Shown here: positions 5,107-55,700 of the stretch, one piece after another
Numbering within the stretch: position 1 is the first letter of the stretch
Layout: every line of letters starts with the position of its first letter
IMG/VR virus record: IMGVR_UViG_3300043172_000883
Coordinates: 1-63,607 of that record
Length of the DNA stretch: 63,607 nucleotides
Source: a virus
Taxonomy: Duplodnaviria; Caudoviricetes
Direction: 5' to 3' (one strand)
Translations under genes and position numbers: made by a program
Notes under the pieces: model-generated
What the model was told of the DNA's origin: nothing
The model's input: the letters and a program-made list of their open reading frames with translations, nothing else
Database searches by the model: none

Positions 5107-5337
5107 ATGGGGAGGCATTGGACTAATATGACCAAACGAGATCAAATATTGCATATTTTGAGAGATGGTCCAGTAAAACATCAAGATTTGATGGGAAAAA
5201 TGGGGATTCGAGCCTTTTATACCGTGTTTTTCATCGATAAACTGCTAGAAGAGGGCAAAATCAAGAAAATTGTGCAACCACTGGATTTACACACAATTTA
5301 CTATGAATTGGTGAAAAAGGATGATAAAGGGCGATAA
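5107..5337 (+). CDS. Winged-helix DNA-binding protein
   Basis: RDQILHILRDGPVKHQDL...IDKLLEEGKI...YYEL wHTH pattern. Confidence 0.65.
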   Translation: MGRHWTNMTKRDQILHILRDGPVKHQDLMGKMGIRAFYTVFFIDKLLEEGKIKKIVQPLDLHTIYYELVKKDDKGR

Positions 5338-12915: not shown

Positions 12916-13209
12916 TCATTCCTCGATCTTCTCCTTGCTTATTATCATAACATCACCAGTGAAATACACATACAACTTATCCAAGTTTTTTAACCCCATC
13001 TTTCGTACAAAATCATGGGGTACTGTCATCTTCATATACTGTCCTTTGATACTGTGGACTGCATATTTGCCCTTATAGAAAAACCATTTGGTTATTGATT
13101 CAATCAAATCATCTTGGTTCATATATATTCGTACGATCGTTCGTACAAAAAGGTTGTTATCGGCTCTCGGTTTAAATACCAACTTCCTAGACTGCTTATG
13201 AATTGACAT
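12916..13209 (-). CDS. AbrB/SpoVT-like transcription regulator
   Basis: MTVPHDFVRKMGLKNLDKLYVY...MIISK matches the AbrB pattern; divergent from the portal gene. Confidence 0.65.
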   Translation of the reverse strand: MSIHKQSRKLVFKPRADNNLFVRTIVRIYMNQDDLIESITKWFFYKGKYAVHSIKGQYMKMTVPHDFVRKMGLKNLDKLYVYFTGDVMIISKEKIEE

Positions 13210-16200
13210 ACCTTGGCACGCACGAAGATTCGGGTATATTTCCTGAACAAGAAAAATATATCACAGAATTGACCAAAGCAATAAATCCTCCGTTTACCAC
13301 ACGTTGGAGAAACAGAATTGCTAGTCGACTTGGCTTTGCACCAAGTATGAAAATGTTGGAAGCTAATAAAATGCTTACCAAACAGCTTCGAAAGATGCAA
13401 ATTATCAATAATCCCATCGCCACCAGGTTCCAAGGTGGTTCAGGTGGTGAGGCCATTGCATACCATCCAAATCAATATGAGCACATGTTTTACTCAGTGC
13501 TTACCAATTCAACTGCACGTCCTATGTTGAATACACGTAAGCGAGAATTATTCAGACAGGGTTTTGAAATCACACCCAAATTCGTTAAGAAGTGTAAGGC
13601 ATGTGAGGCTGATTTTGAATATGAGGTAAAGGAATGTGAGCTTTGTGGATCCTTTGATTTGCGTACACCAAACATTGCTGAGAAAGAATTACTTGAGGAT
13701 CTGATTGTAGAGAAGGTGAACAGGAATAATCAATCTTTGGTTGACGTATTGAAAGAATTACTCGAGGATATGGATATAACTGATGATTGTTGGCTTGCTG
13801 TTCGTAAGAATTACATGGAGATGGATGGTAAGATTATATCTGGGATCCCTATCGAATTATGGCGTGTCAATCCTGCTCATATGGCATTCAGTGTGACTGA
13901 ACACCGAGTAATCGGAGAATATGAATATACTTGTATAGATCATCGTATGTTTATCTCAAGCGATCCTTTTATACCATGTGAGGAATGTGGTAAATCGCTA
14001 CATGCTGTTATCGCTGTACAATATGAGGCGGGTATGCAAGAAATAATATTCAGATTCATTGCTGGAGAAATTATTCATTCATCCATGTATCGACCATCCG
14101 CACTTTATGGCTATCCAGGTGCACTTACACTTTATTATGATCTCAAATTGACCAATAAACAGGTTAAATATATGGCTGATTATTATGATGAGAAGAAGAT
14201 CGCCAATGCTTACCTGATGATACCCACTCGTAATGTCTCCAGTGTTAAAGAACATATGGAGGAGATGAAATTAAAATTACAGAAGGATCCGTATACTATT
14301 CCCTATACTATATACGATCCAGATAGCAAGACTGTCCCACAACTAATACGAATGGATGCCAGTCCTCAAGAAATGCAATTCATGGAGGTTCGTGAGGAAT
14401 CACGTAATCGTATGGGTGCATATTGGGGTGTTGCTCCCATTATGAATAGTGATATGTCCGCTGGTGGTGGACTTAATAATGAGGGTATGCAATTCACCGT
14501 CACCAATCGTGCCATGGAAGATGCTCAAACCACCATGAATAATAATCTGATAAGTCCTCTTACATTGATGTTTAATGTGATGGATTGGGATCTAGGCTTA
14601 CCACCAAGCGAGGAGCAAGATGAGGTGGCTGAGCTGGACCGTCAACTCAAAAAGGATCAAAGTGCGTTGTATAAGCAGCAATTGGGATTCAAAGTATCAC
14701 TACTACCAAATGGAGACTATCGATTTGAACAACCAAGCGAGGAGGAACTTGCGCAACAACAGCAAATGCAACAAATAGGAGAAGGTAATGGTGGTCCCAT
14801 GGGCGAAGGGGATCCTAATGAACAGGATACACCATTTTTTAATAATATCAATCCGCGTGGTGCTGGCAACCAGGCACTTGCGGAGAACCAATTCCAGGGA
14901 AGTCCAACCAAACCACAAGCGGATCATAACCTGGTTAAATTGCTACTGCAGAAGGGAACTCCCATCAAAACAGCCCTAGAAGTGGCTAAAGATCAGAATG
15001 GAGATAAATACAAATTCAATGATGAAATCCCTGATTGGGAATGGTCCGACGATTATGATGTAAAGGAATTTTTAACAGTTACGCTTGATGAGATCAGTCC
15101 ACACCCAGATTTTGAACTCAATGATGATGATATTCTGAAAGAAAGTCCCAGGGTACGACCAGAAACACTGGCTTATTATTTCAATGAGACAGATGAGATG
15201 CAACCGCTGGTGGTTGATGAGAGTTATAATCTACTAGATGGCTATCATCGCCATTATGTACTGAAAAACATGGACCAAAAGGATGTTCGTGTGGTAGTTG
15301 TAGGAGCCAAGTCATTGGCTAAGATGTACAAATTTTTTCTTGCCAAAGTAAAAGATCATCTACGAGCACCACCAGGCGGTGTTAATATACATGGCCAATT
15401 CTATCCTGGAGGACAATTCATTCCACAAGAAGTAATCGATGCAATGTCAGATGAGGAAAAACAGGCAGTGCAACAAGGGCAAGATGTGGGCGGTGAACCA
15501 GGTCAAGAAGAAAAGGAAGGAGATATCGAGGAATACCGAAAAGAGGTTGTTAATGAAAGACAGATCGAGCTAAATGAATATAATAGTATGTTGATGCAAA
15601 CAAATATAGAATTAGAAGGGTTAAATACTAGGCGTGATAAATTATACGAGGCAAATGAAAATTTAAGAAATGTTTTGAATAGAACCGTAAAACAACAAAA
15701 TAGGAAAGATGAAATAAACTGGGAATTATGGGAAATTTCTGATAAGATAACCCAAACTGAATCTGAAGCCACTAAAATAAATGTAAAAATAGAAAACACA
15801 TTAAAAAGAATGAATAACCCAGATTACGATCTAGCAGATAGATTATCTGAAATTGATGAAATAATTCATGCAGCATTAAAAAATGATACAATGAAGAAAA
15901 AATATCCAAGATGGATTAAACGAGAACAAAAAGATCTAGATAAAATTAATGTTGCAATAGTTAAAAAAGATGCCAGCTTGTATGATGTTGATTTTGTAGA
16001 GGATACTTGGGAGGAAACTGAACCAGTTTTGTTAGAAATGAAGGGGTATATGGAAATCAATATCAAAGAGTATAAAGAATCACTGGAGCAAACAGATGAA
16101 ACCAGTTTGGATGAAACTCTTTCAAAATATAATGAGGAGCATAAAGCATTACGAGATTTATCTATCAAAAAGGATGGAGAACATTGGCCATATTATAAAA

Positions 16201-16826
16201 ACAACGAAATGAAAACAGTGCAGGATCTTTCGGAACTAAAAGAAGCCGTTATGAACCAAGACACTTTATATATCGAGAATTTATTTAAAGAAGAACTGGC
16301 GTGGGCCATGGAGCGTTGTGAAATATCTAAAGATTTGTTACCTTATGGTGAAATTCGATTGGATATAGTAGCGGATCCTAATATTTCATATATAGGCCAA
16401 ACACAATTTTCAGACAACACAATTACCCTAAATTTGCCACTAATACAAAAAATAACTGAAAGTGGCTTTAATGTTGTGGTACTTCAAGAGGCAATTCGAC
16501 ATGAGATAGCACATTTTCTCACTGATTTGAAAACATATCCCAATTATCATCAACTACAAGAAGAATATCGAATGTTAGATTTTGATATAGGTGCTTATAG
16601 ATCCAAACCAGACAAACAAAGAGAGATGAAACAAAGAATGATTACCATTGTAAAAACAATAGATTCATATGATAGTCAGAAAATGGCCTCTTTCAATTCT
16701 AATAGGGAGGATACGTCTTTTAGAGAGGGGCACGGACAAGATTGGCAAGATACTATGTATGTATTGTTTGGTAGTAAACCACGACACCGAATGGCTGGTG
16801 GTGCAACCTTACCAGTAAGGAGTTGA
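13203..16826 (+). CDS. Portal protein fused to ParB/Srx-like and SprT-like metalloprotease domains
   Basis: N-terminal ~510 aa portal (LWRVNP, IIH...YGYP, GAYWGVAP, Zn-ribbon inserts); PLVVDESYNLLDGYHR (ParB-like); HEIAH...GHGQDW (SprT-like). Confidence 0.85.
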   Translation: MTYLGTHEDSGIFPEQEKYITELTKAINPPFTTRWRNRIASRLGFAPSMKMLEANKMLTKQLRKMQIINNPIATRFQGGSGGEAIAYHPNQYEHMFYSVLTNSTARPMLNTRKRELFRQGFEITPKFVKKCKACEADFEYEVKECELCGSFDLRTPNIAEKELLEDLIVEKVNRNNQSLVDVLKELLEDMDITDDCWLAVRKNYMEMDGKIISGIPIELWRVNPAHMAFSVTEHRVIGEYEYTCIDHRMFISSDPFIPCEECGKSLHAVIAVQYEAGMQEIIFRFIAGEIIHSSMYRPSALYGYPGALTLYYDLKLTNKQVKYMADYYDEKKIANAYLMIPTRNVSSVKEHMEEMKLKLQKDPYTIPYTIYDPDSKTVPQLIRMDASPQEMQFMEVREESRNRMGAYWGVAPIMNSDMSAGGGLNNEGMQFTVTNRAMEDAQTTMNNNLISPLTLMFNVMDWDLGLPPSEEQDEVAELDRQLKKDQSALYKQQLGFKVSLLPNGDYRFEQPSEEELAQQQQMQQIGEGNGGPMGEGDPNEQDTPFFNNINPRGAGNQALAENQFQGSPTKPQADHNLVKLLLQKGTPIKTALEVAKDQNGDKYKFNDEIPDWEWSDDYDVKEFLTVTLDEISPHPDFELNDDDILKESPRVRPETLAYYFNETDEMQPLVVDESYNLLDGYHRHYVLKNMDQKDVRVVVVGAKSLAKMYKFFLAKVKDHLRAPPGGVNIHGQFYPGGQFIPQEVIDAMSDEEKQAVQQGQDVGGEPGQEEKEGDIEEYRKEVVNERQIELNEYNSMLMQTNIELEGLNTRRDKLYEANENLRNVLNRTVKQQNRKDEINWELWEISDKITQTESEATKINVKIENTLKRMNNPDYDLADRLSEIDEIIHAALKNDTMKKKYPRWIKREQKDLDKINVAIVKKDASLYDVDFVEDTWEETEPVLLEMKGYMEINIKEYKESLEQTDETSLDETLSKYNEEHKALRDLSIKKDGEHWPYYKNNEMKTVQDLSELKEAVMNQDTLYIENLFKEELAWAMERCEISKDLLPYGEIRLDIVADPNISYIGQTQFSDNTITLNLPLIQKITESGFNVVVLQEAIRHEIAHFLTDLKTYPNYHQLQEEYRMLDFDIGAYRSKPDKQREMKQRMITIVKTIDSYDSQKMASFNSNREDTSFREGHGQDWQDTMYVLFGSKPRHRMAGGATLPVRS

Positions 16827-40421: not shown

Positions 40422-41267
40422 TCATACCATATCCTCATTGGAACTGATTCCATACCCGACCAAGTCAGCTATCGCTCTCGAAATAGCACGTGTGGTGGCT
40501 TTTCCAAGCGCATCATGTGGTGAGTAATACAAGCCATTATCAAAACTAGATACTATGCCCCATTGCTCGGCAAATGCGTTATCCGGCATGGTCACTCGGA
40601 CCTTGACTCGGTATTGCCAATAGATATCATGCGAGTTGTGTTTCTTATCCTTTATGGGCAGTGGTGGCTCAAATCTGTCCAGATGTGTCTCCTTAATAAC
40701 AGTACTTAATCGAAATGCCTGGCCAAGCTTACGGAATCCCGATTTCTTCAGGAATTTCTTAGATCCTATTTGATGCCAATCACTATCGCTTATAATCTCA
40801 TTTTTGATGAAATTAAACATCTTCCACTTATCCATGAAATCAATTTTTGATTCCTCAAATGACATAACGTGCTGTGGTGATAGCATCAATGCCTCCTCAC
40901 TCACTATCTCACCAGTGTATTCTTTAGCATCACTGACGCCCTCATCATAACTCTTTTTCTTAGCAAGAGCTGTTTCAAACATATTACTTTTTTCTGTCAT
41001 TTTTTCACCAACTGCGCCATCTAGTATGGCATCTAAATCTAAGGTCCAGCCCCATTTATCATGTTTAGTTTTTATGGGTAATTCATACTGGATCCCTCTA
41101 ACTAGTTCGAATGGTAGTTTAGTTTCATCCTCATAAAGTTGCAATCTGAATGGTTCTTTTCTGATTTCATCATCATTTACAACTTCCAAGATCTTCCAGA
41201 CAAAGGGTAGGTTTGGTTCTATACGACCTACTACCTCATCAATAATCAGTTTCTCTTTATTACTCAT
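40422..41267 (-). CDS. Single-strand annealing protein (Rad52/Redbeta-like)
   Basis: FLKKSGFRKL...KATTRAISRAIADLVG; next to a nuclease gene. Confidence 0.7.
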   Translation of the reverse strand: MSNKEKLIIDEVVGRIEPNLPFVWKILEVVNDDEIRKEPFRLQLYEDETKLPFELVRGIQYELPIKTKHDKWGWTLDLDAILDGAVGEKMTEKSNMFETALAKKKSYDEGVSDAKEYTGEIVSEEALMLSPQHVMSFEESKIDFMDKWKMFNFIKNEIISDSDWHQIGSKKFLKKSGFRKLGQAFRLSTVIKETHLDRFEPPLPIKDKKHNSHDIYWQYRVKVRVTMPDNAFAEQWGIVSSFDNGLYYSPHDALGKATTRAISRAIADLVGYGISSNEDMV

Positions 41268-41767: not shown

Positions 41768-42877
41768 TCATTTGCGACCCATCTCCTCTTTCAAATCTGT
41801 CTCACAACAGTATCTGAATTTGCAATATAGCTCACGACATTCCCAAAAATTATTATTACCCAGAAGTGCTCCACGCTGCATGGCAGTAAGTGGGATAATG
41901 GTCCGTTCTTCCTCTGCAGTGAACACGAGATCAAGTTTTTCCTGAAGTGGTTCAAGCCAGCTCTCATCGAAATCTTGCTTGTAATACCTCATCTCGTAGT
42001 TATTACGGTCCATATAGAGTATTGCGCCTTTGATACCGCCGAGTGCAGCTTGATAGCCCAATAACTGTTCGAGATGACCAGCTTTGGGTGTGTATTGGAA
42101 TCCTTTGGTTGATTTGATATCAATTACCACCAGCTCATTATCAACCCTGCATAGCATATCTGGATGGCCTGTCACCTTACCAGGTCGGCCTTTGATAAGT
42201 GCTGTTGGTGGTATATCAAATTCCATATTGATAACAATATCGGATCCCTCAAGCCTTGATTGAATATACTCATGTACTGATTGGCCAGCCTCGGCTTCAT
42301 TTAACACGTCGAGTGATTTATGGCGATAGTGACGATCAAATGATTCTTTGACAATCGCTTTATCAAAATACAGCGTTTTTGGTTTCTTCAGATTCATCTT
42401 GGCAAATTGCATCTTTCGCATACATCCTGGGAGTGAGGACATGCGCTGCGTTCCCTTATCTGGTACGTACCCATGACCAAACTCCCTGTTCTTCTTGTGG
42501 AGCCTCTCACGAATGGCGATGTAAAGCGGATCACTGTTATCCAGGGTTGGTTGTCTACTAACCGCTGCTTTGCTGATCTGACGGAATAATAAAACACCAC
42601 CTTTTTTATTCTTCTCGATGTTGAACCTGCGTTTACCAACACTGTAATCATCACTGGTGGTGGTTTCTCGACCCATAAATTCATATTCTGCAAATGGTAT
42701 AACTGGAGCGTTTTCCAGTGCATGATGACCAAAATAACTTATGATGGCATCGCCTTGAAATGTTGCATGTGCAATCCACATGGGTACATCACCAGGTAGC
42801 ACCATGGCCTTATCCCACTGCGTTGTTACCATTACTTTGTAAAGTAAAAGTTCTGGCATTATTTTTCTTGCCTCCAT
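41768..42877 (-). CDS. Cas4-like PD-(D/E)XK exonuclease with Fe-S cluster
   Basis: SSLPGCMRK, GQSVH, GHPD...VIDIKST, QLLGY, C-terminal EC..YCKFRYCC. Confidence 0.85.
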   Translation of the reverse strand: MEARKIMPELLLYKVMVTTQWDKAMVLPGDVPMWIAHATFQGDAIISYFGHHALENAPVIPFAEYEFMGRETTTSDDYSVGKRRFNIEKNKKGGVLLFRQISKAAVSRQPTLDNSDPLYIAIRERLHKKNREFGHGYVPDKGTQRMSSLPGCMRKMQFAKMNLKKPKTLYFDKAIVKESFDRHYRHKSLDVLNEAEAGQSVHEYIQSRLEGSDIVINMEFDIPPTALIKGRPGKVTGHPDMLCRVDNELVVIDIKSTKGFQYTPKAGHLEQLLGYQAALGGIKGAILYMDRNNYEMRYYKQDFDESWLEPLQEKLDLVFTAEEERTIIPLTAMQRGALLGNNNFWECRELYCKFRYCCETDLKEEMGRK

Positions 42878-43047
42878 TCTTCCTCGGTGGTTTGTTTGGC
42901 TACTGTCTGTCGTACTGCCCTACAATTTTCACACCAGAGTAATGTTGTGTTTATCCACTGTCGCACGGCGCGACCGTTGATCTTGGCACGTTTCCTGATT
43001 TTTGGTATGTATAGCCTTGCATTACACACGTTACACTTAGGATTCAT
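42859..43047 (-). CDS. Small Zn-ribbon protein
   Basis: CNVC...WCENC; TATA ~25 nt upstream (leaderless). Confidence 0.6.
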   Translation of the reverse strand: MNPKCNVCNARLYIPKIRKRAKINGRAVRQWINTTLLWCENCRAVRQTVAKQTTEEEWRQEK

Positions 43048-43098
43048 ATTAGTTATAGCTTGTATTTTGAATATAAAAACTAGGGTATCCCCTAGTGG

Positions 43099-43135
43099 AA
43101 AAATAAATAAAAAAAGTCGGAGGTTTTTAGCCTCC
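43099..43135 (-). terminator. Hairpin plus oligo-T terminator
   Basis: - strand GGAGG CTAAAAA CCTCC GA CTTTTTTTATTTATTTTT. Confidence 0.65.
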
Positions 43136-44096
43136 TTTCGGAAATCGTCATTTCCCTTTGTTAGTTAAAACGAAATTATGGTAATTGGTCTGGTTACATC
43201 CCCTACCACTAAGGGAGTAGTATTGTAGTCACTCCATATTAATCCTTTATTCACACAATTTAGAGAGGGCCAGAGAAGCCGTGCTGAAATCGTTTCTCCA
43301 ACCAGTCTCAGTGAGGATGGTCGATAATCCTCTTCATCATACCCTTGCGGGTACGGGAAGCGACCAACTCTTCCCTTTAGGGGGGTTATTGAAAGGCGGA
43401 GCTTGTGGTCATGTTTCAACCACGCCCGTTATTTCCCATGGGATCAGGGTTTGCCAGCTCCGTTGTAAGAGAGAAGGCGAAAGTTTATCGGTTTAGGATT
43501 GTAAGACAACCTTCTCTGGTTACTGTAAGAGAGAGGGCTTGTACCTTCCTACTAACCCTCTCTTGTTACTGTCAGCCTACTATTGTAAGACCGTAGGCTA
43601 TGGACTGGTATACACTGTCTCGGTAGACCGAGCTTAGGTATTATAAGGGAGAAGGCTGCCATGCATTTTTTTCACAGCTTTATAGGGTGCACCCTAAATA
43701 AACCTTCTCTTTAGTATTGAAGGACTTATGGAGTGACCGTGATGGGGTCAGTACCACCTTCGCAACTACTGTAAGAGAGAAGGCGAGTCCTACTACCACG
43801 AGCTCGAAAGCAATGTGTTCCTTCTCTTGTTACTGTAATCGGGATAAGTCCTGACAGCTACCTTCAATCTATTTAAAGTCAGATCACGACAACCATTCAG
43901 TAGCGTAACTTATCCCTAAGTTGGTATTGTAATGAAAGAAGGGTATTTTTACTACTGGAAACCTTCCCTCGTTACTATAATGGGGACCTACATCCGTGAG
44001 GAATGCCCCTAGTTTTGCCAATGTAATGGGGAAATAGGTTCGTAAACCACATTCCCCGTTTGTGAAGTAGTCAGTTCCACGCTCTGCCTAAGACAT
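43105..44096 (-). ncRNA. Putative ~1 kb structured non-coding RNA (tandem hairpins with UUACARUA linkers)
   Basis: No credible ORF; upstream TTAAATA box; downstream terminator; at least 10 hairpins with repeated GAGAAGG/CCUUCUC stems. Confidence 0.7.
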
Positions 44097-44116
44097 TTAA
44101 TAATACGGGCAACCCC

Positions 44117-44123
44117 TATTTAA
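44117..44123 (-). promoter_or_regulatory. TATA box TTAAATA with A-rich BRE, driving the putative ncRNA
   Basis: AAGAAATAA-TTAAATA; same box at 44343, 44780 and 54802 in front of - strand units. Confidence 0.65.
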
Positions 44124-44144
44124 TTATTTCTTATTTAATAGGAT

Positions 44145-44321
44145 TTATTGTCCAGTAATCTTGATAATTGCCTTGATATATCCATCATAAATGCGTTTTA
44201 TTTCATCGTGAGCTTGTTCTTTTGTATAGCTCCCTTTCAAAGTACTTGCGTCCTTCACAACTTGACCAATCGATCCGAGTGTGAAAGCCAACAAACTGAT
44301 TATATCTGCTGAGTCAGTCAT
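44145..44321 (-). CDS. 58-aa hypothetical protein (MTDSADIISLLAFTLGSIGQVVK...), not in the ORF track
   Basis: Leaderless ATG ~21 nt below the TTAAATA box at 44343-44349; open frame to TAA. Confidence 0.65.
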   Translation of the reverse strand: MTDSADIISLLAFTLGSIGQVVKDASTLKGSYTKEQAHDEIKRIYDGYIKAIIKITGQ

Positions 44322-44365
44322 AGCTAATTATTGGCAATACCCTATTTAATCCTTGCTTATGTTAT

Positions 44366-44734
44366 TTAGTTAGAAGTTTCCACTGATGCTTTTTCTTGTT
44401 TTGCAATCTTTACTAATTCATAGCTTATGATTGCATTTTTTATCTTAATCCATGTCTGTTCATTGAATTTACCATCTGGTAAATCATTGCCTCTTGTCCA
44501 ATCTTCTCCTGCTCTTGGTTTCCTATTCGAAACTTGGCATCCTAAATAATCATTATTGGCTGTAATTGAATATCTATTATTCTTTGTAAAAAAATGGATG
44601 TTAAATTTATCTTTGCGATCTTGTAATATAAATTTAAAATGATCTTCTATATTATTTGTACGATATAATAGTTCACTCAACCAATCTATAAGTTGTTGAT
44701 GTAATGGGGTTAATATTTTATTCATTTGTATCAC
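44366..44734 (-). CDS. Hypothetical protein
   Basis: 122 aa; own TTAAATA promoter at 44780-44786. Confidence 0.65.
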   Translation of the reverse strand: MIQMNKILTPLHQQLIDWLSELLYRTNNIEDHFKFILQDRKDKFNIHFFTKNNRYSITANNDYLGCQVSNRKPRAGEDWTRGNDLPDGKFNEQTWIKIKNAIISYELVKIAKQEKASVETSN

Positions 44735-44802
44735 TTTTATACCGCTAAGCAGCGGTTATATAATAATACGAGAATCAAGTATTTAATATTTTGTTTGTAC
44801 TT

Positions 44803-45153
44803 TTAAGTTAAAACACATTTCATCTCACATTTAAAAATGCGACACATGTTTGGTCTATCCTCATAGATTAAACATTTACTATTAACCGCTAGTGGGCATA
44901 TACGTACGCCCTCCAATACCTCTATTAAAATAAAATCATCATTGAATTGTCTATATGCTTTACCATCATTGTTTCTCTTGTCATAATCTCCATACGGATA
45001 ATCCACTGGATTTACAAATCCGTTCATATTCATATAAAAACAGCATGGAGCCAAACAATCATTACATCTATCTATCCAGTTTTGTCGATATCTGGTTAGA
45101 TTCTTATGCCCTACCATATTATCAAGTTGTCCCCATCTATTCAAAATAATCAC
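44803..45153 (-). CDS. YkgJ/CxxCxxCC-family Fe-S or Zn cluster protein
   Basis: CNDCLAPCC...CPLAVNSKCLIYEDRPNMCRIFKC. Confidence 0.8.
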   Translation of the reverse strand: MIILNRWGQLDNMVGHKNLTRYRQNWIDRCNDCLAPCCFYMNMNGFVNPVDYPYGDYDKRNNDGKAYRQFNDDFILIEVLEGVRICPLAVNSKCLIYEDRPNMCRIFKCEMKCVLT

Positions 45154-45844
45154 CTAACTCCGCATTTTGCCAGTATGGACTAAATCTAACCCAGGGATCC
45201 AAATCACATGCAAATATCTGTGCTCCTCGCCCATATGCCGCTGCTATGCTTGCACCATAACCAGCGAAGGGGTCCAGAATACAAGTGCTTTTCAGATGCC
45301 TAAATAACTCGCTTAGTAATTCTTTAGGCTTGGCCGCTGATCTTGCCAGTTTGGTACTGCCATTTTTGGCCTTACGCATGGGACCAGGCAATGTGATATA
45401 TTTATTGAGAATTTGACCTTTTGGTTTTCCCTTGATTTTCGTTCCTTGAACATAAATATGCTCTCCGTTGTTACGGTCCGCGTTACCAGCTATGGTAATA
45501 TTAATTGGTTTTACCCAGGCATGCTTGCATGCAATATTATCAAGATGTTGTAATCGCTCCTCTTGGCTATGAAAGTGAATGATATAGGTATCTGGTTTGA
45601 TTCTTGATTTGATATAATCAAATATTTTTTTCCTAAGTACTGGATCCATTAATCTAACTGCGGGATTATTCCATGGGACACACGCATCCTTCTTCATCTT
45701 GGTCCTACCATTAACTCGTTCCTCATCTTCTTTGTTGCCAGCATCAAAATAGGGAGGATCCCATACCACCGTATCGATAATGGGCCAAACCTCATCTGGA
45801 ATAGATTTTACGAAATCATATCCATCAATACCAAATTTAATCAA
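45137..45844 (-). CDS. Beta-class amino-DNA methyltransferase (probably N6-adenine)
   Basis: VVWDPPY...KPKELL...ILDPFAGYG. Confidence 0.8.
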   Translation of the reverse strand: MIKFGIDGYDFVKSIPDEVWPIIDTVVWDPPYFDAGNKEDEERVNGRTKMKKDACVPWNNPAVRLMDPVLRKKIFDYIKSRIKPDTYIIHFHSQEERLQHLDNIACKHAWVKPINITIAGNADRNNGEHIYVQGTKIKGKPKGQILNKYITLPGPMRKAKNGSTKLARSAAKPKELLSELFRHLKSTCILDPFAGYGASIAAAYGRGAQIFACDLDPWVRFSPYWQNAELGDYFE

Positions 45845-46009
45845 TCTTAATCACCACTGGTTTACCATTGCTCTTGGACCTCGCATACATATCTAACAAA
45901 TGATCCAAGAAATCATCATGTGTTATATTCTCTCGTCTGAGATCGCCCTTGTGTCGCTCTTTCTTTTCCAAGAATCGCTCATGTGTGGCTCGACTGATAG
46001 TTATCACAC

Positions 46010-46777
46010 TCATATAAAAAACTCCTGCAATGGTCGCGATCTTATTAAAAATTCATCAGAATTAAATTTCAATTGGTGATGTGTGGTTATTTCAATTCTC
46101 TTCAAATATTCTTGGAAATATAACTCAAATTCATGGGTTTTAGCTGATGCCTTTCCAAGCCCGCCTATCCTTGGAAACTTCCAACTCATACTATCAAAAC
46201 TATCTATAATTGCAAAAACGTTTTTCAAATGGTATAATCTCAGACCAAAGGCGTGGATGAAGCTTTCTGGAAATTGTTTTCTCAGGTAGTGCAGGGCATG
46301 TTTAACAAAATCACGGTTCCCACTTTTACACATGGTTCCAACTGCAATCTTATCATGTGGCCCATATTCCTTTTTGAACCAAGTTATAAATTCAACAAAA
46401 CTACCGTAATTATCATAATAGCCTTGGATCACTGGAAGTTGACTAGGATCCTCTGGATTGAATAGATCCATCAAAAGCTGTTTACTATATTCCACATTAT
46501 CAACATCTGTTTTTTTACCAAATTCACCAACCAAGTCTGGACAATCTGGGACCACCTTCCAACCATCAGTTTTCAGATTCTTCCATTTGTTAATTTTTTT
46601 GTCAGAATGCCTATCAGATTTCAGTAAATCATAGATCCCAATATCCACAATCTCATGCTTATAATTCTTCCTTGGTTTTTGTTTGATATTCCGCATGATG
46701 TATGGGTAATCAATCGGTGCGTAAGTATAGAACCTCATAATATCACCCACAATTACCCATATGGCTTTCAATCGCAA
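46010..46777 (-). CDS. TGT/DpdA-like transglycosylase (7-deazaguanine insertion-like)
   Basis: IVDIG, VPD, LPVIQG, IAVG, IHAFG, DSFDSMSW match the TGT/DpdA motif order. Confidence 0.7.
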   Translation of the reverse strand: MRLKAIWVIVGDIMRFYTYAPIDYPYIMRNIKQKPRKNYKHEIVDIGIYDLLKSDRHSDKKINKWKNLKTDGWKVVPDCPDLVGEFGKKTDVDNVEYSKQLLMDLFNPEDPSQLPVIQGYYDNYGSFVEFITWFKKEYGPHDKIAVGTMCKSGNRDFVKHALHYLRKQFPESFIHAFGLRLYHLKNVFAIIDSFDSMSWKFPRIGGLGKASAKTHEFELYFQEYLKRIEITTHHQLKFNSDEFLIRSRPLQEFFI

Positions 46778-47275
46778 TTTTAATCATTTTCAATTGGTCC
46801 TTTGATAATGGTACTTCTTTGGTTTCTTCTTCAATATGACCGCAAATATGAAGATATAAATCTGAGAATTGATATTTTAGTTTCTTCATAATCCTCTCTC
46901 CTCATAGATATCCAGGGTTTGCTCATTATATCTGCATGTTTCACAACACTTGGCAAATCTCCATTTATGGTAGTAGAATTGCTCTCTGCACTTGAAACAT
47001 CGAAGCCTCCAATATTTCTGCTTACGATATCGTGTGGATCTACGCAGTCGTATCAATCTCAAAATCATAATTATCCTCTTCTTCTATTTCTATATTTTGA
47101 TTATAGCGGTCCGCCATGATACCAACCGTTAGGATCCAGATAATCAACACTAGCACAGTCATCTCAAAGGTCCAAGCATCCGAGATTGCTTTTAATATGT
47201 TAACTATGAAAATTATCACGAAGATAAATAATCCTGCGAAGAAAGCAAAGCGAACCCGCTCATATTGTTGCATAC

Positions 47276-47566
47276 TCATCCTTCTTTCCTCCTTATCTGT
47301 CGTCCACTGATCGCAGGATTATATGCAAATTTAATTGCACCATCCCGTATATTTGGGCTAATTATGACCATCATACCATAGATTACTGTTATACCATAAT
47401 CTTGATACAAAATCACATATTCTGGTTTTACACCATGGTTGTGTATTATACGATCCATCCCCTGTTTCACCTCGTATATCATGGCATGGCGTTCCTGATC
47501 AGCTAGCGGTTCAAGCTTCTTCAATTCAGCTTCCAGTTCTTCTATCTTGTCATCTACATTCATCAT
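47276..47566 (-). CDS. Hypothetical protein with a capsid-like C-terminal peptide
   Basis: TVIYGMMVIISPNIRDGAIKF. Confidence 0.5.
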   Translation of the reverse strand: MMNVDDKIEELEAELKKLEPLADQERHAMIYEVKQGMDRIIHNHGVKPEYVILYQDYGITVIYGMMVIISPNIRDGAIKFAYNPAISGRQIRRKEG

Positions 47567-48183
47567 CAGTCATCCTCCAAATCGTACACTTCCAAGGTGG
47601 CTTTATAATATTCATCAAATGTCGCTATTCCTATTTGAACCCATGTTTCATATTTTATATTGTATTTTGTCCCTAATTCTTTCATAATCTTTTCCACATC
47701 ATTTGGTGCTTTGCTAAACCTGATTTTCTCGCCTTTGTAATCCTCTTTTGAAACAAAAAAACTTTTACTTTCAAAAATAGGTTCTATGCTTTTTATCTCA
47801 AACCCTAGCAATCTTAGCTCGAATTCTAGTTCACTTAGTTTCATTAGTTAATCCTCCAAGACATATAAGGTACAATAACACCATCTGGGTTCATTTCCCA
47901 TCTCTTGATATCTTCTAGGATCTCCAGACATATATAAGTAAGGTGTGCTTCGAATGCATTAAATTTTGAATCTACAATTGACCAAACTCCAATTTGTAGT
48001 ACATCCATAAACATTTTACCCGCATAGAAAGTGAAAATATAGTAATAGCCATTCATGGTGAGGCTGGTATCACTCATCACACCAAAATAGAAGAAAGTCA
48101 TCTTCTCAGCCAGTTGTGGTAATTTTCCTATATCTTTTTCTAGGGTTATCTGTCCATGTTCTAAGTCAATCATAATATCACCT

Positions 48184-49479
48184 TCAAAAATATTCCTCCA
48201 AACGATATGATTCTATTTTAGGTTCCAATTTAATAGGTTCTAGCTTAAATGCCTCTTCTAATGTGGTGGCATTTAATATTTTCTCAACCAACGCTGTGTA
48301 AGGAGGCAATGCACCAGCAAACCCTAATACTCTTCTACCTTTTGCAATCAAATCTAATTGTTCTTTGGTCCAATTGGATGAAATATATTGGTTCTTTTTT
48401 AGTGAAGTCAAAGGTTCAAATCTCATTGGATACGATACCACTCCCCATGACATCAAATCTTTTAGTCTGTATAGAAAATCTTCAGGTGTATCTTTATGAT
48501 TGAACAACGTGTAAAATATCATTTTTTGGCCTTTAAACCCTACATCTTTCAGAAATTGAATTCCGTTTTTCACTCCATTCCTTGCTGACTTCGTATCGTA
48601 GGCCAAATGTAAAAATGGTAATTTAATTTCTTTTAAGTTTCTCGCAATTTTTGGTGTGATTAACCTTGCATCCAAACCTTGATTGAAATCTACTTTTTGA
48701 TTGAATTTCTTAAGATCCATTATTACTTGTTCAAAATTCGGTGCAGCTAGTATATTATTATCCCAAATATACACTCGCTTATGGTTTTCGTTCAACATAG
48801 AATAAATATCATTTTTCACACTGTTGATTCGACCCTCAATTTTGGGAACTACACAGAAAGAACATCTCCTTACACAACCCCTTGTAGTGAACAATATATT
48901 GCCGTTCCAATTTGGAACCAAATCATAAGCAGGATTAAGGTTTTCTACTTCCCTAGATAGCCCTACGTGAACTGCATCAGCGCCAGAAAGAGATGCATGA
49001 TCAGGTAATATTGAAGCGTATATTCCTCCAAGAATAATTTTAGCGGTTGGAAAATATTTTTTATATAGTTTAACAGCTTTCCATACTGACCCCCATGACC
49101 ATGTAAATAAACTGGTAATATAAATAATATTCGGATTAAATTTTGGGAATTGAGATCTCTTTTTTTCTTTCAATCTTATTAGTTCAATATTATCCCCGCG
49201 ATTTCTATGAAATGTAGCTATTTTCAATAATCCTAATGGTGGATATTTTGTGTAATAATTTGGTTCAACTAGTAAAACATTCATTTTCTGAGTGAACTCA
49301 AATTTGAATTGTGTCATTAAGTTTTTCACTTTTCCATTTTTTAGTTTATCAGAATACCATACAAAAGGTAAATCATGGCATATTTTACAAACCCATTGAT
49401 AAGGTCCTGTTGTGTAGGGACCAAGCAATATTTCTGTTTTCTGACCACAACAATCACAGTGCGTTTTTATTAATTTCAT
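48184..49479 (-). CDS. Cobalamin-binding radical SAM enzyme
   Basis: PPLGLLKIA, IILGGIYAS (B12 domain), TTRGCVRRCSFC, DNN, DFNQGLDAR. Confidence 0.88.
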   Translation of the reverse strand: MKLIKTHCDCCGQKTEILLGPYTTGPYQWVCKICHDLPFVWYSDKLKNGKVKNLMTQFKFEFTQKMNVLLVEPNYYTKYPPLGLLKIATFHRNRGDNIELIRLKEKKRSQFPKFNPNIIYITSLFTWSWGSVWKAVKLYKKYFPTAKIILGGIYASILPDHASLSGADAVHVGLSREVENLNPAYDLVPNWNGNILFTTRGCVRRCSFCVVPKIEGRINSVKNDIYSMLNENHKRVYIWDNNILAAPNFEQVIMDLKKFNQKVDFNQGLDARLITPKIARNLKEIKLPFLHLAYDTKSARNGVKNGIQFLKDVGFKGQKMIFYTLFNHKDTPEDFLYRLKDLMSWGVVSYPMRFEPLTSLKKNQYISSNWTKEQLDLIAKGRRVLGFAGALPPYTALVEKILNATTLEEAFKLEPIKLEPKIESYRLEEYF

Positions 49480-49483
49480 AGTA

Positions 49484-51223
49484 TCACCTATTAGCAGCTA
49501 CTATCCCCTCTTTTGGACAGAACAACGTTCCATCGGTCAACCACTGTTTAAGCATATCCTCCACATAATCAACATCGATATTGAATGTTTCAGCCATCTC
49601 AAATAATTTAGTCATGGGTGTAAGATCCTCCGCTGTAATACGCAAAACCTCATCACGATAACGTCTACGTATCTCCATATTGTCACCCTCTTTCTCTGGT
49701 TCCTCAAGCGGTGGATCCGCAAAATGCTCGCTTATATCTGAATTCCAGTTAGGATTAATATCATTTAGTTTACTGATGAATAATTCAAACCCACGATAGC
49801 CACGACTGCCTTTATAATTAAATCGCGATATTCGGTTCTTACCATAGAAACTGGTCAATCTCCGACCAATCACGTTAGGTGTGGCACGGTCCGCTTGGAA
49901 CTTAAATCTGAATGCCTCATATGCACGTCTTATTTCAGTGGTCGACACCTCGCCTTCTAGGTTCTCATAGGTGTATCGTTCGATGAATATACCCACGGGA
50001 TCCCTGAAGCTCTCTATAATGGATGCGGATCTATCACTAATACCTGTTTTCAATTCCTGGATCTTATCAATCAGATAAGATAATGATTCGATACACCAAT
50101 TGAATATACCACTCTTTTCTTGCTCCAGTCGATGGGCAAGACCCGTATCATCTTTGGATCCCACGAATTTATTAGGGCAACGTACTATGATAAATCTCCG
50201 TAGCTCACTGTCTTGCTGCAGATTGGGTAATTTGTTGGCAGTGATAACCACTTTGGCATCTATTATCGTTTCATATGGCCTCTGGAATTTGGGATTTACT
50301 GTTATGGGTTCTCCAACAATCAGCGTTTTGATTGCGCTTGTATCCGTCACTGTTTTATTACTCTCACTTGCATAGATGAATTCCTTACCAATCAAGCCTG
50401 CGGTCCCATGCTTATCATCAGCCATCTGATCAAGTCGCATACTGCTATAATTATTGAACATGTTCATCCAGGGTTGCATGATGGTTCCCTTACCATTGGC
50501 CCCATCTCCATAAAGAAACATACATGCTTGCCACTCGAAGAAATTATTGACAAAACTATATGCCATAAAATGCTTGAATAAGCGGCGATCAAGCTGATCT
50601 GGAACCACCTCTTTCAGAGCGGTCATATATTGTGGTGCTTTGGCTTCCTTATCATATTCCAAGTTGAGGCGGCTGGTAAAGCGATATGCACTGTTGAAAG
50701 GCAATAGATTAATAGATTTGGTAAACAGGTTATACTCAACCACTCCATTATTAACATTGAATAATATTATATCACCAACATCCAGCGATAACTTACGACT
50801 GAATGGTGCATAATCGTGATTATAATCCCTCATCTTTAGCATATCATCATAACATATCATCTTGTATTTGGCTACCATATCAGCGATATTCTTAGCACTG
50901 CACAATTTGATATAGTCAACCGTCTTGAGTAACATTATCACGTAATCTGTAATCCAACGATTATCAATATCTAGCTTCCAATACCCCTCAATATTATCAT
51001 AGAAAAGAAAACAATCTCGCTCGCTTATGAATTGGTGTGGATTGCCATCGCTGGTGATTAACTCAATCACTGTCTCACGCACCTCTGCTATACTTGGTGG
51101 TTTAATCCCAGATTTAACAATGATATTGTCAAGATTCATCTCCTTTGGCTCGAATGCTTTGCCCACCGCATCAGGGTTTGCATCCACCGCTTCTGTTATC
51201 TTGTCTAGTAAATCGTTGGTCAT
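49484..51223 (-). CDS. D5/P4-family SF3 helicase without primase domain; C-terminal MCM-like winged helix
   Basis: D5_N-like region, Walker A GDGANGKGT, ASE, ITAN, RRF; C-terminal VEDMLKQWLTDGTLFCPKEG. Confidence 0.88.
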   Translation of the reverse strand: MTNDLLDKITEAVDANPDAVGKAFEPKEMNLDNIIVKSGIKPPSIAEVRETVIELITSDGNPHQFISERDCFLFYDNIEGYWKLDIDNRWITDYVIMLLKTVDYIKLCSAKNIADMVAKYKMICYDDMLKMRDYNHDYAPFSRKLSLDVGDIILFNVNNGVVEYNLFTKSINLLPFNSAYRFTSRLNLEYDKEAKAPQYMTALKEVVPDQLDRRLFKHFMAYSFVNNFFEWQACMFLYGDGANGKGTIMQPWMNMFNNYSSMRLDQMADDKHGTAGLIGKEFIYASESNKTVTDTSAIKTLIVGEPITVNPKFQRPYETIIDAKVVITANKLPNLQQDSELRRFIIVRCPNKFVGSKDDTGLAHRLEQEKSGIFNWCIESLSYLIDKIQELKTGISDRSASIIESFRDPVGIFIERYTYENLEGEVSTTEIRRAYEAFRFKFQADRATPNVIGRRLTSFYGKNRISRFNYKGSRGYRGFELFISKLNDINPNWNSDISEHFADPPLEEPEKEGDNMEIRRRYRDEVLRITAEDLTPMTKLFEMAETFNIDVDYVEDMLKQWLTDGTLFCPKEGIVAANR

Positions 51224-51662: not shown

Positions 51663-52436
51663 TCATTCAATCTTCTCCAGTGATTGATATTTTTTTCCTC
51701 TGAAATATTTACAACCTTTGATGCCTTTGCATTTATCCCCCTCATGGTCTCCGATGCATGGTTGAAGTACACCTGATTGTTTATAGAAAAATACAATTCC
51801 TAATTCTCTACATTTTTTAAGTATTGGATCCACCCATTCATATTCCATTTTAATCGGTTTCCTATGGGTTGGTCTATCTATTTTTGGTTGGTCAGATTCT
51901 CCACCCACAATTACAAGATCGATTCCTGTAAGATCGATCTCATCCATTGGTCCAAGTAAGGGTTCAAGTGATAGCCATTTTACTGCAGCACTTGTTTTTC
52001 TAAGAAGATTAATTCTACCATAATGTTTGGCAAGTTCAACCGATGTGCCAAACCAAATATTATCATGTAATTTTAGCATGCCTGATTTATCCATCTTCAA
52101 CATTCTACCTGGTCTTTTGGTTAGAATTTGGTATATGTGCTGAGGATGTTTATTAAATAGATTAAACATCTTTTGGATGAAATTATCAGATACGTCCTTA
52201 TTAAAAGTATCAGACATTGAATTAACAAATATTTTGTATGGTTTTTTCCAAGGAATTTCTAGACGATTTGGTAGTTCTTTAACCATATTGAATCCGTCTG
52301 TGTAATTGGGTTGTGTTGGGTTATGTAAATTCCTATTATGCATGGTCCGAGCATAGCACAGATCACAGCCTGCGGATACCTCTTTACATCCAATAACGAA
52401 ATTGCGGGATTTATCAGCCCATTCTACATTTGTCAT
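51663..52436 (-). CDS. DUF5131 (phage Gp37/Gp68) radical SAM-like protein
   Basis: GCKEVSAGCDLCYA, IFVNSMSD, YQILTKRP, LSLEPLL, IVGGES, FFYKQ. Confidence 0.9.
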   Translation of the reverse strand: MTNVEWADKSRNFVIGCKEVSAGCDLCYARTMHNRNLHNPTQPNYTDGFNMVKELPNRLEIPWKKPYKIFVNSMSDTFNKDVSDNFIQKMFNLFNKHPQHIYQILTKRPGRMLKMDKSGMLKLHDNIWFGTSVELAKHYGRINLLRKTSAAVKWLSLEPLLGPMDEIDLTGIDLVIVGGESDQPKIDRPTHRKPIKMEYEWVDPILKKCRELGIVFFYKQSGVLQPCIGDHEGDKCKGIKGCKYFRGKKYQSLEKIE

Positions 52437-54775: not shown

Positions 54776-54809
54776 CGGTAAAATTCAATTGCCAACCACA
54801 TTATTTAAA

Positions 54810-55700
54810 CTATGAATCGCGATAGAATTTCATCAGTCATTATTGTAGTAAAATTAACACTTATTTACAGATTTGGTGCATTGAAATACCCACAACAAGT
54901 GCACCGTATTTCCATATATTGGCGCTATTATCCATGGGCATACCACAATTAACCATAATACGCTAAGCATATTTACCGTATTTCGTTGTCACTAATTTAT
55001 ATGTGTTTGCCATATTATTCGTGTATCACTTGGCATATGGGTTGTAATATATTACATTGTCTACTAATACCACTGCATAATTCACAAAACTACAATATCT
55101 GGATTTACTCACCTTTTAGATATTGACAGAGTATTGACGCGTCAATATTGATACAACGCATTATGCGGATCCAAAATATTGCGAGGGTCGTACAAAAGTG
55201 TCTGGCTACGTCTAATACTGGCTAAATCTGAACTTAATTCCGTACGACCCTCGTAACAACGAATTATTGCTCTACATCATTTATATGTATAATGTGTGTA
55301 TGTTACTACTATACTATTATTCATAACTTAATTGTTTACTAAAATATATGGAATACGAGGGTCGTACCAATAGGAGAGCTTAATACCAGATAAACTTGCA
55401 ACTACGGACAAACAACGGATTCTCGACAATCCGCGACATTACGTTGTTTTTCGTACGAAAATAGCATGAATCCGTTGTCTAAAATACTATACTACTGTTG
55501 TAATTCATCATTTCCCATACAAAACTTAACAATATTCCATCAGTACCACTATCAGTAGTAAGTACTACCCGCAGTGGTACTAACAAAAGTAATACCCACA
55601 TCATACACACGTAATACTTATCACTATCCATACTCAAACGGTCATACCCTAATATGTATTACGGGTTCCCCTCGCTTGTCAATATCAAAGTTTTTAAACT
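54810..55700. other. Divergent intergenic region rich in palindromes; candidate replication origin or control region
   Basis: CGAGGGTCGTAC three times (one inverted), TATTGACGCGTCAATA, TTTTCGTACGAAAA, ACAACGGATTC/GAATCCGTTGT. Confidence 0.55.

Follow-up and report, generated by a model that had tools for sequence, protein, structure and literature searches.

A string of predicted hairpins with shared stems and a co-oriented UUACA-like motif in a gene-free gap of an uncultured tailed-virus genome

The DNA analysed here (the window) is the whole of IMG/VR record IMGVR_UViG_3300043172_000883, 63,607 nt assigned to Duplodnaviria (Caudoviricetes), which carries direct terminal repeats in the assembly and is estimated to be a complete virus genome. 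Its genes are tightly packed, with an upstream gap of <20 nt at 88 of 125 crude gene starts. Within the minus-strand block, 1,097 nt (43048-44144) separate the end of a gene for 58 amino acids (aa), at 44145, from the start of the next gene, at 43047, and make up the largest gene-free gap of the block. Most of this gap is taken up by a non-coding unit of about 1 kb (43105-44096), co-oriented with the flanking operons, in which a dozen predicted hairpins follow one another, several of them built on the same stem and many of them followed by the same short motif. As a sequence feature, this array is real and statistically unusual.

The gap contains no open reading frame (ORF) longer than 84 aa, and none of its frames opens if TGA, TAG or TAA is reassigned. 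On a codon-usage scale on which 31 small presumed genes of this virus score 0.28 +/- 0.12 and 14 spurious ORFs, overlapping or antisense to others, score 0.09 +/- 0.13, the 84-aa ORF (43165-43419, TTG start) scores 0.04; it yields no Pfam family and is probably spurious. A 45-aa ORF (43884-44021, also with a TTG start) scores 0.23, within the range of real small genes, but is too short for such a score to be meaningful and traverses two of the hairpins, H5 and H6. Neither TTG is preceded by a Shine-Dalgarno motif; among closely spaced genes, 63 of 88 are. Although these ORFs are present, it is thus most improbable that the locus exists to encode small proteins such as these, with its hairpins being incidental or regulatory.

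The unit is bracketed by promoter-like and terminator-like signals, as follows.

44124-44117, minus strand: TATA-like box AUUAAAUA, within an 18-nt promoter-like block (44107-44124).
44096-44088, minus strand: predicted 5′ end AUG-UCU-UAG, in which a stop follows two codons, some 23 nt beyond the box.
43135-43109, minus strand: terminator-like hairpin GGAGGCUAAAAACCUCC (GGAGG CUAAAAA CCUCC, 3 nt, U7).
About 43096-43074, minus strand: second terminator-like hairpin (ACUAGGG GAUA CCCUAGU, then U5), overlapping TTTTTATATT, the TATA-like box of the next gene (start codon at 43047).

The 18-nt block, ATTAAATAGGGnnTTGCC, is found at 44124-44107 and again at 44350-44333, before the upstream 58-aa gene, and in both places an ATG follows the end of the A/T box at a distance of about 21-23 nt. 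The placement of AUG-UCU-UAG relative to its box therefore matches that of the start codon of the 58-aa gene, and transcription of the array unit may begin at this triplet series. With up to 3 mismatches allowed, ATTAAATAGGGNNTTGCC has three matches in the window (0.97 expected), two of which are the array box and the box of the 58-aa gene, with 0 and 2 mismatches, respectively. No sigma-70-type promoter was found on the minus strand.

As a separate observation, a ATTAAATA box precedes each of three consecutive minus-strand units, namely a 122-aa gene at 44366-44734, the 58-aa gene at 44145-44321 and the non-coding unit. The boxes lie at 44107-44124, 44333-44350 and about 44780-44795; the 18-nt block is common to two of them, and GTATTATTA comes after the first and the third. 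The three look like a small duplicated promoter family.

In the predicted local minimum-energy fold, the 5′ two-thirds of the unit forms 12 consecutive hairpins (44057 to 43397, minus strand), numbered here H4 to H15 in the direction of reading and followed by a 3′ part of different character. The z values compare each hairpin with shuffled sequence; hairpin borders were set at helix ends, which flatters z.

44028-44057, minus strand: H4, GGGGAA...UUCCCC with a UACG loop, then AUUACA; -12.7 kcal/mol, z -2.82.
43983-44009, minus strand: H5, GGGGC...GUCCC, then AUUAUA; -8.9 kcal/mol, z -0.97, weak when taken alone.
43929-43975, minus strand: H6, shared-stem family, GUAA.GAGGGAAGG / CCUUCUUUC.UUAC with two G·U pairs and an 18-nt interior; 54 bits, z -2.23.
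43841-43916, minus strand: H7, a long hairpin, GGGAUAAGUU...GGACUUAUCCC, then GAUUACA; -23.3 kcal/mol, z -3.40.
43771-43833, minus strand: H8, shared-stem family, with an upper stem above a 6+6 internal loop in its 36-nt interior; 71.9 bits, z -1.50.
43719-43761, minus strand: H9, GAAGG...CCUUC, then AAUACUAAAG; -11.7 kcal/mol, z -1.27, weak.
43649-43709, minus strand: H10, shared-stem family, two inner hairpins within a 47-nt interior, then CCUUAUA; 58 bits, z -3.07.
43619-43632, minus strand: H11, small, CUCGG UCUA CCGAG; z -3.68.
43575-43598, minus strand: H12, GCCUAC / GUAGGC with CUUACA in a 12-nt loop, then UGACAGUAAC; z -2.60.
43525-43569, minus strand: H13, shared-stem family, the sole compensated variant, AGAGAGGG / CCCUCUCU, with an 18-nt interior; z -3.80.
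43465-43523, minus strand: H14, shared-stem family, 32-nt interior containing CUUACA; 76.6 bits, z -3.36.
43397-43462, minus strand: H15, a branched domain closed by CGGAGCU / AGCUCCG, then UUUCAAUAAC; z -1.58, weak.
43140-43396, minus strand: 3′ part, with GCAA- and GAAA-capped stems, overlapping the 84-aa TTG ORF at 43165-43419.

Five of the hairpins (H6, H8, H10, H13 and H14) are paralogues that share an interrupted 12-bp stem, GUAA-(C/CA/CC)-AGAGAAGG ... CCUUCUCU-C-UUAC, around interiors of 18, 36, 47, 18 and 32 nt, respectively, which have no sequence in common. H4 and H5 constitute a second paralogous pair, their 3′ arms being related (family D4), while H7, H9, H11 and H12 each have a stem of their own. 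At the DNA level, the two arms of the shared stem appear as two families of repeats: direct repeat D1, TGTAAGAGAGAAGGCGA, occurs at 43464 and 43770, with variants at 43524, 43584 and 43642, and D2 comprises CCTTCTCT-GTTACTGT-like copies at 43508, 43554, 43818 and 43960. These repeat halves are 17-22 nt long and 72-100% identical, with spacings of 60, 60, 58 and 128 nt for one arm and 46, 264 and 142 nt for the other, and one copy reads as a 28-nt palindrome (43510-43537).

The locus had first been singled out in a reading by a model of the sequence letters and their ORFs (the original prediction), which described the largest gap in the minus-strand block (in our delimitation 43048-44144), a TTAAATA box, an AUG-UCU-UAG start, an end in a hairpin plus oligo-U, and at least 10 consecutive hairpins, several with common stems around unrelated interiors of about 15-50 nt. 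Each of these sequence features was found, at or within 2 nt of where it had been placed, with 12 hairpins being predicted in our fold and five units sharing a stem around interiors of 18-47 nt. Its description of the region as non-coding, as neither a canonical CRISPR nor a tRNA array, and as foreign to known families also agrees with our coding, repeat, ARAGORN and Rfam tests; as to the Rfam match and the coding frame that it had named among the things able to overturn it, the Rfam search matched no family, and the inspection of reading frames found none that opens and only an 84-aa ORF that scores as spurious.

The second recurrent component of the array is a short motif, [A/C]UUA[C/U]A, present in 10 copies on the minus strand and one on the plus strand, where 1.14 would be expected. 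The minus strand has 8 copies of TTACA and the plus strand none (0.97 expected per strand), and for TTACA[AG]TA the counts are 5 and none (0.05 expected). It is often extended to UUACAGUAAC, and it follows the 3′ foot of H4, H5, H6, H7, H8, H10, H13 and H14; the remaining two copies lie within hairpins, one in the H12 loop and one in the H14 interior. The distance from one copy to the next is irregular, ranging from 24 to 128 bp. In the predicted ensemble, the motif is unpaired in 5 of its 10 copies (mean 0.71-0.99), the unpaired probability of CUUACA in the H12 loop being 0.99, and the final A is unpaired in all 10. When pairing of the 3′ foot in front of the motif was enforced, the solutions were mixed and partly multi-branched, and by our estimate 6-bp stems beside a given site are expected by chance.

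Local folding was evaluated against 60 dinucleotide shuffles, with a maximum pair span of 90. The array proper (43440-44060) has a folding energy of -180.2 kcal/mol (z -5.4) as the minus strand and of -170.1 kcal/mol (z -2.6) as the plus strand, and the corresponding values for the whole unit are z -6.6 and -4.0. As controls, 19 windows of the same length were folded on both strands, and these 38 strand-windows gave a mean z of -0.46 (standard deviation 1.18, minimum -3.7); the minus strand of the array is the strongest local-folding outlier tested, lying beyond all 38 of them. Taken singly, 8 of the 12 hairpins reach z <= -2.2, and none of 200 shuffles of H10 folds as well as H10 itself. Across the five shared-stem units, 93% of the 60 pair cells hold a standard pair, compared with 48-68% if the 3′ partner is slid by 1-3 columns. 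The stem variants GAGAGGG and CCCUCUC, which had been proposed to co-vary, do co-occur in one unit (43525-43569), where an A-U to G-C double change at pair 19/71 in H13 is the sole compensatory event among the five units; that part of the claim stood, while co-variation as such amounts to this one event, to the significance of which we return below. A covariance model built from the five units recognizes, within the window, only the units from which it was made.

Such figures bear on the notion that the array is a functionless or decaying remnant, left between two operons by local duplications or by the degradation of an array or gene, and transcribed at most by read-through. Its orphan status fits this explanation, since all homology searches were blank, as do the degeneracy of the repeats (72-100% identity), the lack of significant structure in the 3′ third and the non-significant covariation. 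However, the motif is strictly co-oriented and about ten-fold enriched, pairing is kept in 93% of cells, and the region has promoter-like and terminator-like signals of its own; moreover, 1 kb of junk would be unusual in a genome as compact as this one. We consider decay distinctly unlikely.

Relatives of the locus were sought in several ways. A blastn search with 43000-44200 against phages and plasmids gave no match, and searches for related loci in viral contigs with the Cas4-like nuclease, the terminase, the helicase and the best distant relative of the helicase, P0003, were equally blank; the nuclease found nothing in phages by tblastn and only itself in a word-indexed protein search. A 9-sequence helicase alignment was too diverged to seed a locus search, and a smaller alignment returned only DUF5906 helicases of 22-31% identity. 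These were in 35 viral and 80 metagenome loci, none of which is kin, and the covariance model of the shared-stem family had no match in the first 100 of these 115 loci (1.07 Mb, default filters). The exact repeat 17-mer has one match in viral contigs, which lies inside an apparent coding sequence and was taken as chance. The pattern TAACNAGAGRRGG-N15-45-CCYYCTCTCTTA has no match in viral contigs and two in species-representative genomes, both in Geobacter metagenome-assembled genomes and likewise taken as chance; from the reading frames, we take these to lie in a lysyl-tRNA-synthetase-like gene after an efp-like stop. Within the window itself, no stretch of the region of at least 14 nt recurs elsewhere on either strand, and there is a single 13-mer where about 2 would be expected. 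None of 4227 Rfam models, among them those for GOLLD, ROOL, OLE, HEARO, introns, riboswitches and sRNAs, matches the window at its gathering threshold, and at E up to 10 the interval 42800-44400 gives five rows (E 1.1-9.3), all far under their gathering scores. ARAGORN finds no tRNA or tmRNA gene in the whole window, and Tandem Repeats Finder reports no tandem repeat array.

The sequence is listed in a single run, a DNA run of a marine sediment metagenome that is probably its source; at 80% likeness, this run contains one identical contig of 63,510 nt and no variants. The virus encodes a terminase, a portal-like protein, a DUF5906 primase-helicase, a radical-SAM/B12 protein, a DpdA-like protein, two DNA methylases, a DUF5131 protein and a Cas4-like nuclease; the terminase, the portal-like protein and the remaining gene set therefore identify it as a tailed virus. 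Single-protein searches with the nuclease, terminase and helicase revealed no near relatives: the best non-self match of the helicase is 32% identical (HMMER, 1.84 billion representatives), and the terminase is nearest to those of Bacteroides phages, at 26% identity. Among the gene products of this orphan virus, the DUF5131 protein (51663-52436; Pfam E 1e-64) is by far the best conserved; its nearest counterparts are in Gordonia phages (~40% identity), and it matches 176 phage records, in which Mycobacterium phages (the commonest) and Gordonia phages are the most frequent. The host domain is left unsettled by the similarities of the terminase and the DUF5131 protein.

The arrangement of gene starts also bears on the host. 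GGAGG-like motifs precede 63 of the 88 closely spaced genes versus 4 of 29 genes that follow long gaps, and at several of the latter an A/T-only box ends 21-26 nt before the start codon, for example:

Gene starting at 13203: A/T-only box TTTAAATA.
Gene starting at 19817: A/T-only box ATTTATATA.
Gene starting at 43047: A/T-only box TTTTTATATT.
Gene starting at 57705: A/T-only box AATTTATATA.

A/T-only boxes accompanied by no Shine-Dalgarno motif were noted at the starts 9261, 13203, 19817, 36457, 43047, 54775 and 57705. Archaeal TATA boxes with leaderless transcripts show such a box-to-start geometry, and because of this promoter geometry alone an archaeal host appears likely.

We lean towards the view that the hairpin array is a real minus-strand RNA gene. 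In its favour are the signals that bracket it, the co-orientation of the motif with the flanking genes, the better fold of the minus strand, pyrimidine arms whose purine partners lie at variable distances, and the double change in H13; an arm spacing of 18-47 nt would be tolerated by a hairpin, and presumably not by a dimeric DNA binder. As to its role, we tentatively propose, with rather less assurance, an independently transcribed, structured non-coding RNA that serves as a multivalent binding or decoy platform. Such a platform is the most likely role because the stem feet and the motif are conserved while the loops vary. The RNA, of ~0.99 kb, would extend on the minus strand from about 44096 to the U-runs at 43109-43100; a TATA-box-type promoter of its own, a near copy of that of the upstream 58-aa gene and possibly of archaeal type, would drive its transcription, and the hairpin with oligo-U would end it. 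Its first 700 nt would form the string of 12 hairpins, nearly every one followed by [A/C]UUA[C/U]A(R)UA or bearing it in the loop. A single kind of factor, of host or viral origin and specific for sequence and structure, could bind there in many copies and thereby be titrated or assembled, with the RNA acting as sponge, decoy or scaffold. The large decoy RNA put forward in the original prediction is compatible with our findings and close to this proposal, itself an inference; the transcription unit announced there was borne out at the level of sequence signals only, by a promoter-like box duplicating that of a neighbour and by the terminators.

A number of observations weigh against this interpretation. 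No RNA run lists the array stretch. The 3′ third (43130-43460) shows no significant structure on either strand (z -1.9 for minus and -1.6 for plus), and UUAC is predicted to be paired in 5 of the 10 motif copies, so that the motif is not uniformly displayed. The compensatory change in H13 is not significant, being equalled in 101 of 500 column shuffles, and phylogenetic covariation is unobtainable because no homologue was found in any collection searched. G·U pairs number 24 and 23 on the two strands, and because these counts are equal the strand is left unsettled by pairing chemistry; inverted repeats acting in DNA would likewise yield much of the folding excess, as the plus-strand values (z -2.6 and -4.0) indicate. 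The neighbouring small proteins matched no informative family, and Pfam, PHROGs and PADLOC revealed no RNA-related protein among the neighbours. Finally, the archaeal type of the array promoter is suggested by position and likeness only, and A/T-only runs at -40 to -22 are but weakly enriched, in a crude count, at long-gap starts (10 of 29, against 22 of 88 short-gap starts). Support for selection at the RNA level is thus thin.

Several of these points would suit a DNA-level element, in which about 10 co-oriented sites with a TTACA core, some of them near-palindromic (TTACnGTAA), and inverted 17-nt purine/pyrimidine boxes would form an origin or auxiliary replication site (with iterons and single-strand initiation hairpins), act in partition, or serve as a regulatory sink for a DNA-binding protein of the virus; candidate binders are the DUF5906 primase-helicase, helix-turn-helix proteins and the 62-aa zinc-ribbon protein encoded alongside at 42859-43047. 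Its location in a replication/recombination module (DUF5906 helicase at 49484-51223, Cas4-like nuclease at 41768-42877, Sak-type lead at 40422-41267), the 10 motif copies within 620 bp, a plus strand that also beats its shuffles, the absence of G·U asymmetry and the non-significant covariation are all in keeping with this idea. It recalls the P4 ori/crr sites, which are iteron-type origin and auxiliary sites bound by primase-helicases: there, as here, many short repeats occupy a non-coding stretch in the replication module of a D5/DUF5906 helicase. Iteron-type origins have regularly phased repeats of 17-22 bp beside an AT-rich unwinding element and the initiator gene. Here repeats are present, but the array is not AT-rich, its GC content of 42.7% being among the higher values for 1-kb bins (range 31-46%); the spacing is irregular both for the inverted boxes (18-47 bp) and for the motif (24-128 bp), with no tandem array reported by Tandem Repeats Finder; the helicase gene is 5.4 kb away; promoter-like and terminator-like signals bracket the region exactly; and the repeat arms behave as hairpin partners. 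In addition, the cumulative GC skew turns elsewhere, at about 35 kb and about 55 kb, and the divergent non-coding region at ~54.8-55.6 kb is a better candidate for an origin or control region. We therefore regard a DNA-level element as unlikely, if worth keeping in mind.

That other non-coding region, of ~800 nt (54780-55570), lies where the minus-strand and plus-strand gene blocks diverge, and the cumulative GC skew has its minimum there. A 14-15-nt box, TACGAGGGTCGTAC, is present in three copies, at 55179-55193, 55242-55256 (inverted) and 55354-55367, along with several other inverted repeats, and the region is a plausible control region or origin.

If the array is indeed an RNA gene, a virus, possibly an archaeal one, would be the carrier of a large modular non-coding RNA, a case for which almost no described examples are known to us. 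Its design, with a dozen hairpins, a shared foot plus motif and free loops, would be unlike CRISPR, TIGR or tRNA arrays and Rfam families; it would point to a new RNA-protein interaction that the virus uses during infection, for example to titrate a host factor, for counter-defence or in assembly, and would offer a concrete, clonable object of 1 kb. If it is a cluster of DNA sites instead, it would be an unusual replication or regulatory element of an uncultured virus lineage. At present, the locus is a well-documented oddity. It stands well above the ordinary because nothing known accounts for the architecture.

The neighbourhood of the array includes two gene groups that deserve mention. Downstream, the Cas4-like PD-(D/E)XK nuclease (41768-42877, minus strand), with a C-terminal cysteine cluster, is encoded upstream of two small ORFs and a 281-aa protein (40422-41267), for which a weak lead to Sak-type single-strand annealing proteins (ESM Atlas, 0.87) is the only one; the two look like an exonuclease/annealase recombination pair rather than a part of CRISPR adaptation. 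For the 122-aa protein, ESM Atlas gave only chance-level rows (0.81 or lower), and a PDB sequence search yielded nothing useful for either the 281-aa or the 122-aa protein. On the other side lies a candidate DNA-modification module (45137-49479), listed here with an adjoining gene and a distant second methylase.

44803-45153: CxxCxxCC metal-binding protein, assigned to the DNA-modification module.
45137-45844: methylase, weak match, in the DNA-modification module.
46010-46777: DpdA-like protein, Pfam E 3e-5, below cut-off.
48184-49479: B12-binding radical-SAM protein, in the DNA-modification module.
5321-6103: second, clear N6/N4 methylase.

These modification genes suggest a modified genome, possibly of the 7-deazaguanine type. 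Farther away, a 1,207-aa ORF (13203-16826) has a weak portal-family match confined to residues 166-419 and may represent a portal fused to a large extra domain.

Comparison of the array with known systems shows that it is outside every RNA or guide-array family tested. CRISPR arrays consist of near-identical direct repeats of 23-50 nt with a regular period and uniform unique spacers, none of which is seen here. There is a certain likeness, in that repeats surround unrelated sequences, spacing is ~60 nt in part of the array, one copy is a 28-nt palindrome and a Cas4-like gene is nearby; however, the repeat halves mostly stand apart, and each 3′ arm pairs across the variable part, not within the repeat. 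The only row for the Rfam CRISPR direct-repeat model, CRISPR-DR, scores 17.9 bits (gathering 39) and lies away from the repeats, at 43333-43368 of the plus strand, and no cas effector was found among the neighbours scanned beyond the Cas4-like PD-(D/E)XK nuclease. The comparison extends to viral mini-arrays and to RNA anti-CRISPRs, the latter reported to be solitary repeat units (PMC10651486).

The virus-borne TIGR-Tas systems provide another parallel. According to Faure et al. (2025, PMC12045711), they are dual-spacer guide arrays located beside genes for Nop-domain proteins, some being tandem stem-loops with variable palindromic stems, and the array is transcribed and then cut at its linkers; the dual-repeat form alternates 8-12-nt edge and loop repeats with 9-nt spacers in units of ~36 nt. 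For the stem-loop form, the rule as worded in 10.64898/2026.09.09.750476 calls for two intervals, each of box C (CNA), an 8-10-nt spacer and box D (YG), no more than 15 nt apart, on a stem of at least 5 bp. Tandem virus-borne hairpins other than CRISPR, with non-identical stems, short linkers and a terminator at the end, are common to the present array and to these stem-loops as so described. Here, however, there is neither a 36-nt period nor a second class of repeats between 9-nt spacers. The units in those accounts have two 8-12-nt spacers and a loop of at most 15 nt, with boxes inside the hairpin, as opposed to interiors of 18-47 nt with no internal motif and a conserved motif outside the stems or in loops. 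A simplified script found no TIGR-type stem-loop unit in 43070-44130 on either strand, and 6 chance units in the whole window over both strands. Six-frame searches with Nop-domain profiles PF01798 and PF21572, at E up to 10, gave no match; the two profiles detected controls in 5 and 3 of 14 genomes, Tas proteins being divergent and reported to have been found by a custom profile. Neither the 281-aa nor the 122-aa neighbour gave a Nop-like lead.

These comparisons bear on whether the array is of the guide type, as the original prediction had suggested as one of its two readings. The transcript would then be cut at the UUACA linkers into ~11 unit hairpin RNAs whose variable interiors would guide an effector to nucleic-acid targets, in distant analogy to TIGR, CRISPR or multi-hairpin H/ACA RNAs. 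Variable interiors within conserved stems are what one would look for, together with a conserved linker as a possible processing or anchoring site; the order of hairpin and then ANA recalls H/ACA, in the 3′ half the units start 60, 60 and 58 nt apart, a Cas4-like nuclease is encoded 240 nt downstream, and linker-processed viral hairpin arrays with variable stems do exist among the TIGR systems just discussed. The interiors of the shared-stem hairpins, however, have no common length or internal motif. To our knowledge, all guide arrays known so far have ruler-fixed spacers. Nor is there any TIGR-type unit, Nop-domain match, reverse transcriptase, cas-type effector (the Cas4-like nuclease aside), Rfam CRISPR repeat at the hairpins or match of at least 14 nt to the rest of the genome, and an H/ACA-like pocket is present in one of the 12 hairpins, with no K-turn seen. 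The suggestion of a guide-like array is thereby disfavoured, and we give it little credence.

Other candidates were tried and rejected. A ToxI-like type III antitoxin array would have near-identical tandem direct repeats of ~36 nt beside a ToxN-type endoribonuclease gene; there are no tandem repeats, and PADLOC gave no ToxN-type match among 10 neighbouring proteins; a retron or diversity-generating retroelement RNA was dismissed as no reverse transcriptase was found (PF00078, six frames, E up to 10). By inspection, no copy of CUUACAA, which we take to resemble a 7-nt anticodon-type loop, is closed by an adjacent stem as tRNA anticodon-loop mimicry would entail; the shared stem contains no K-turn or bulge-helix-bulge motif; and the core motifs do not fit attC-like sites.

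GOLLD and ROOL are, like the proposed product of this locus, large and apparently non-coding structured RNAs of tailed viruses. The build of the array is repetitive and modular, as opposed to a single ornate fold, and it has no Rfam match to either.

The archaeal multi-hairpin H/ACA RNAs resemble it in having consecutive hairpins, each with an ANA triplet (ACA or AUA) shortly after the stem. An H/ACA unit comprises a lower stem, a two-sided guide pocket and an upper stem with a K-turn or K-loop, with the ANA 14-16 nt from the top of the pocket, and there are 1-3 hairpins. In the array, ACA or AUA follows 8 hairpins, the ANA being 2-4 nt after the stem. In contrast to H/ACA RNAs, the hairpins number 12, and a pocket with an upper stem is seen in H8 only, with its ANA ~17 nt from the pocket top; H6 and H13 have plain 18-nt interiors, H10 is branched, and no K-turn or K-loop was seen by inspection. 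It would be a long shot to regard the array as the first of a new class of viral hairpin-array RNAs, probably from an archaeal virus, whose modular units of a stem plus an ANA tail recruit a host or viral RNA-binding enzyme and make no use of Cas or Nop proteins. The primary transcript of roughly 1 kb might be processed into small effector hairpins or act as a multivalent trap, a candidate partner being a protein, of PUA type or other, that reads a stem foot plus ACA, and it would be the H/ACA-side counterpart of TIGR on the box C/D side.

The sponge RNAs CsrB and RsmZ, which titrate a protein by displaying copies of a GGA motif, share with the array the many copies of a short motif in the loops and linkers of consecutive hairpins, and also the conservation of sites but not of loops. 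No Rfam sponge family was matched, the motif is UUACA-like as opposed to GGA, and the RNA would be far larger (~1 kb) and viral. In its working principle, nevertheless, a sponge RNA with many short motifs between and on its hairpins would be the nearest analogy to the multivalent platform that we tentatively propose.

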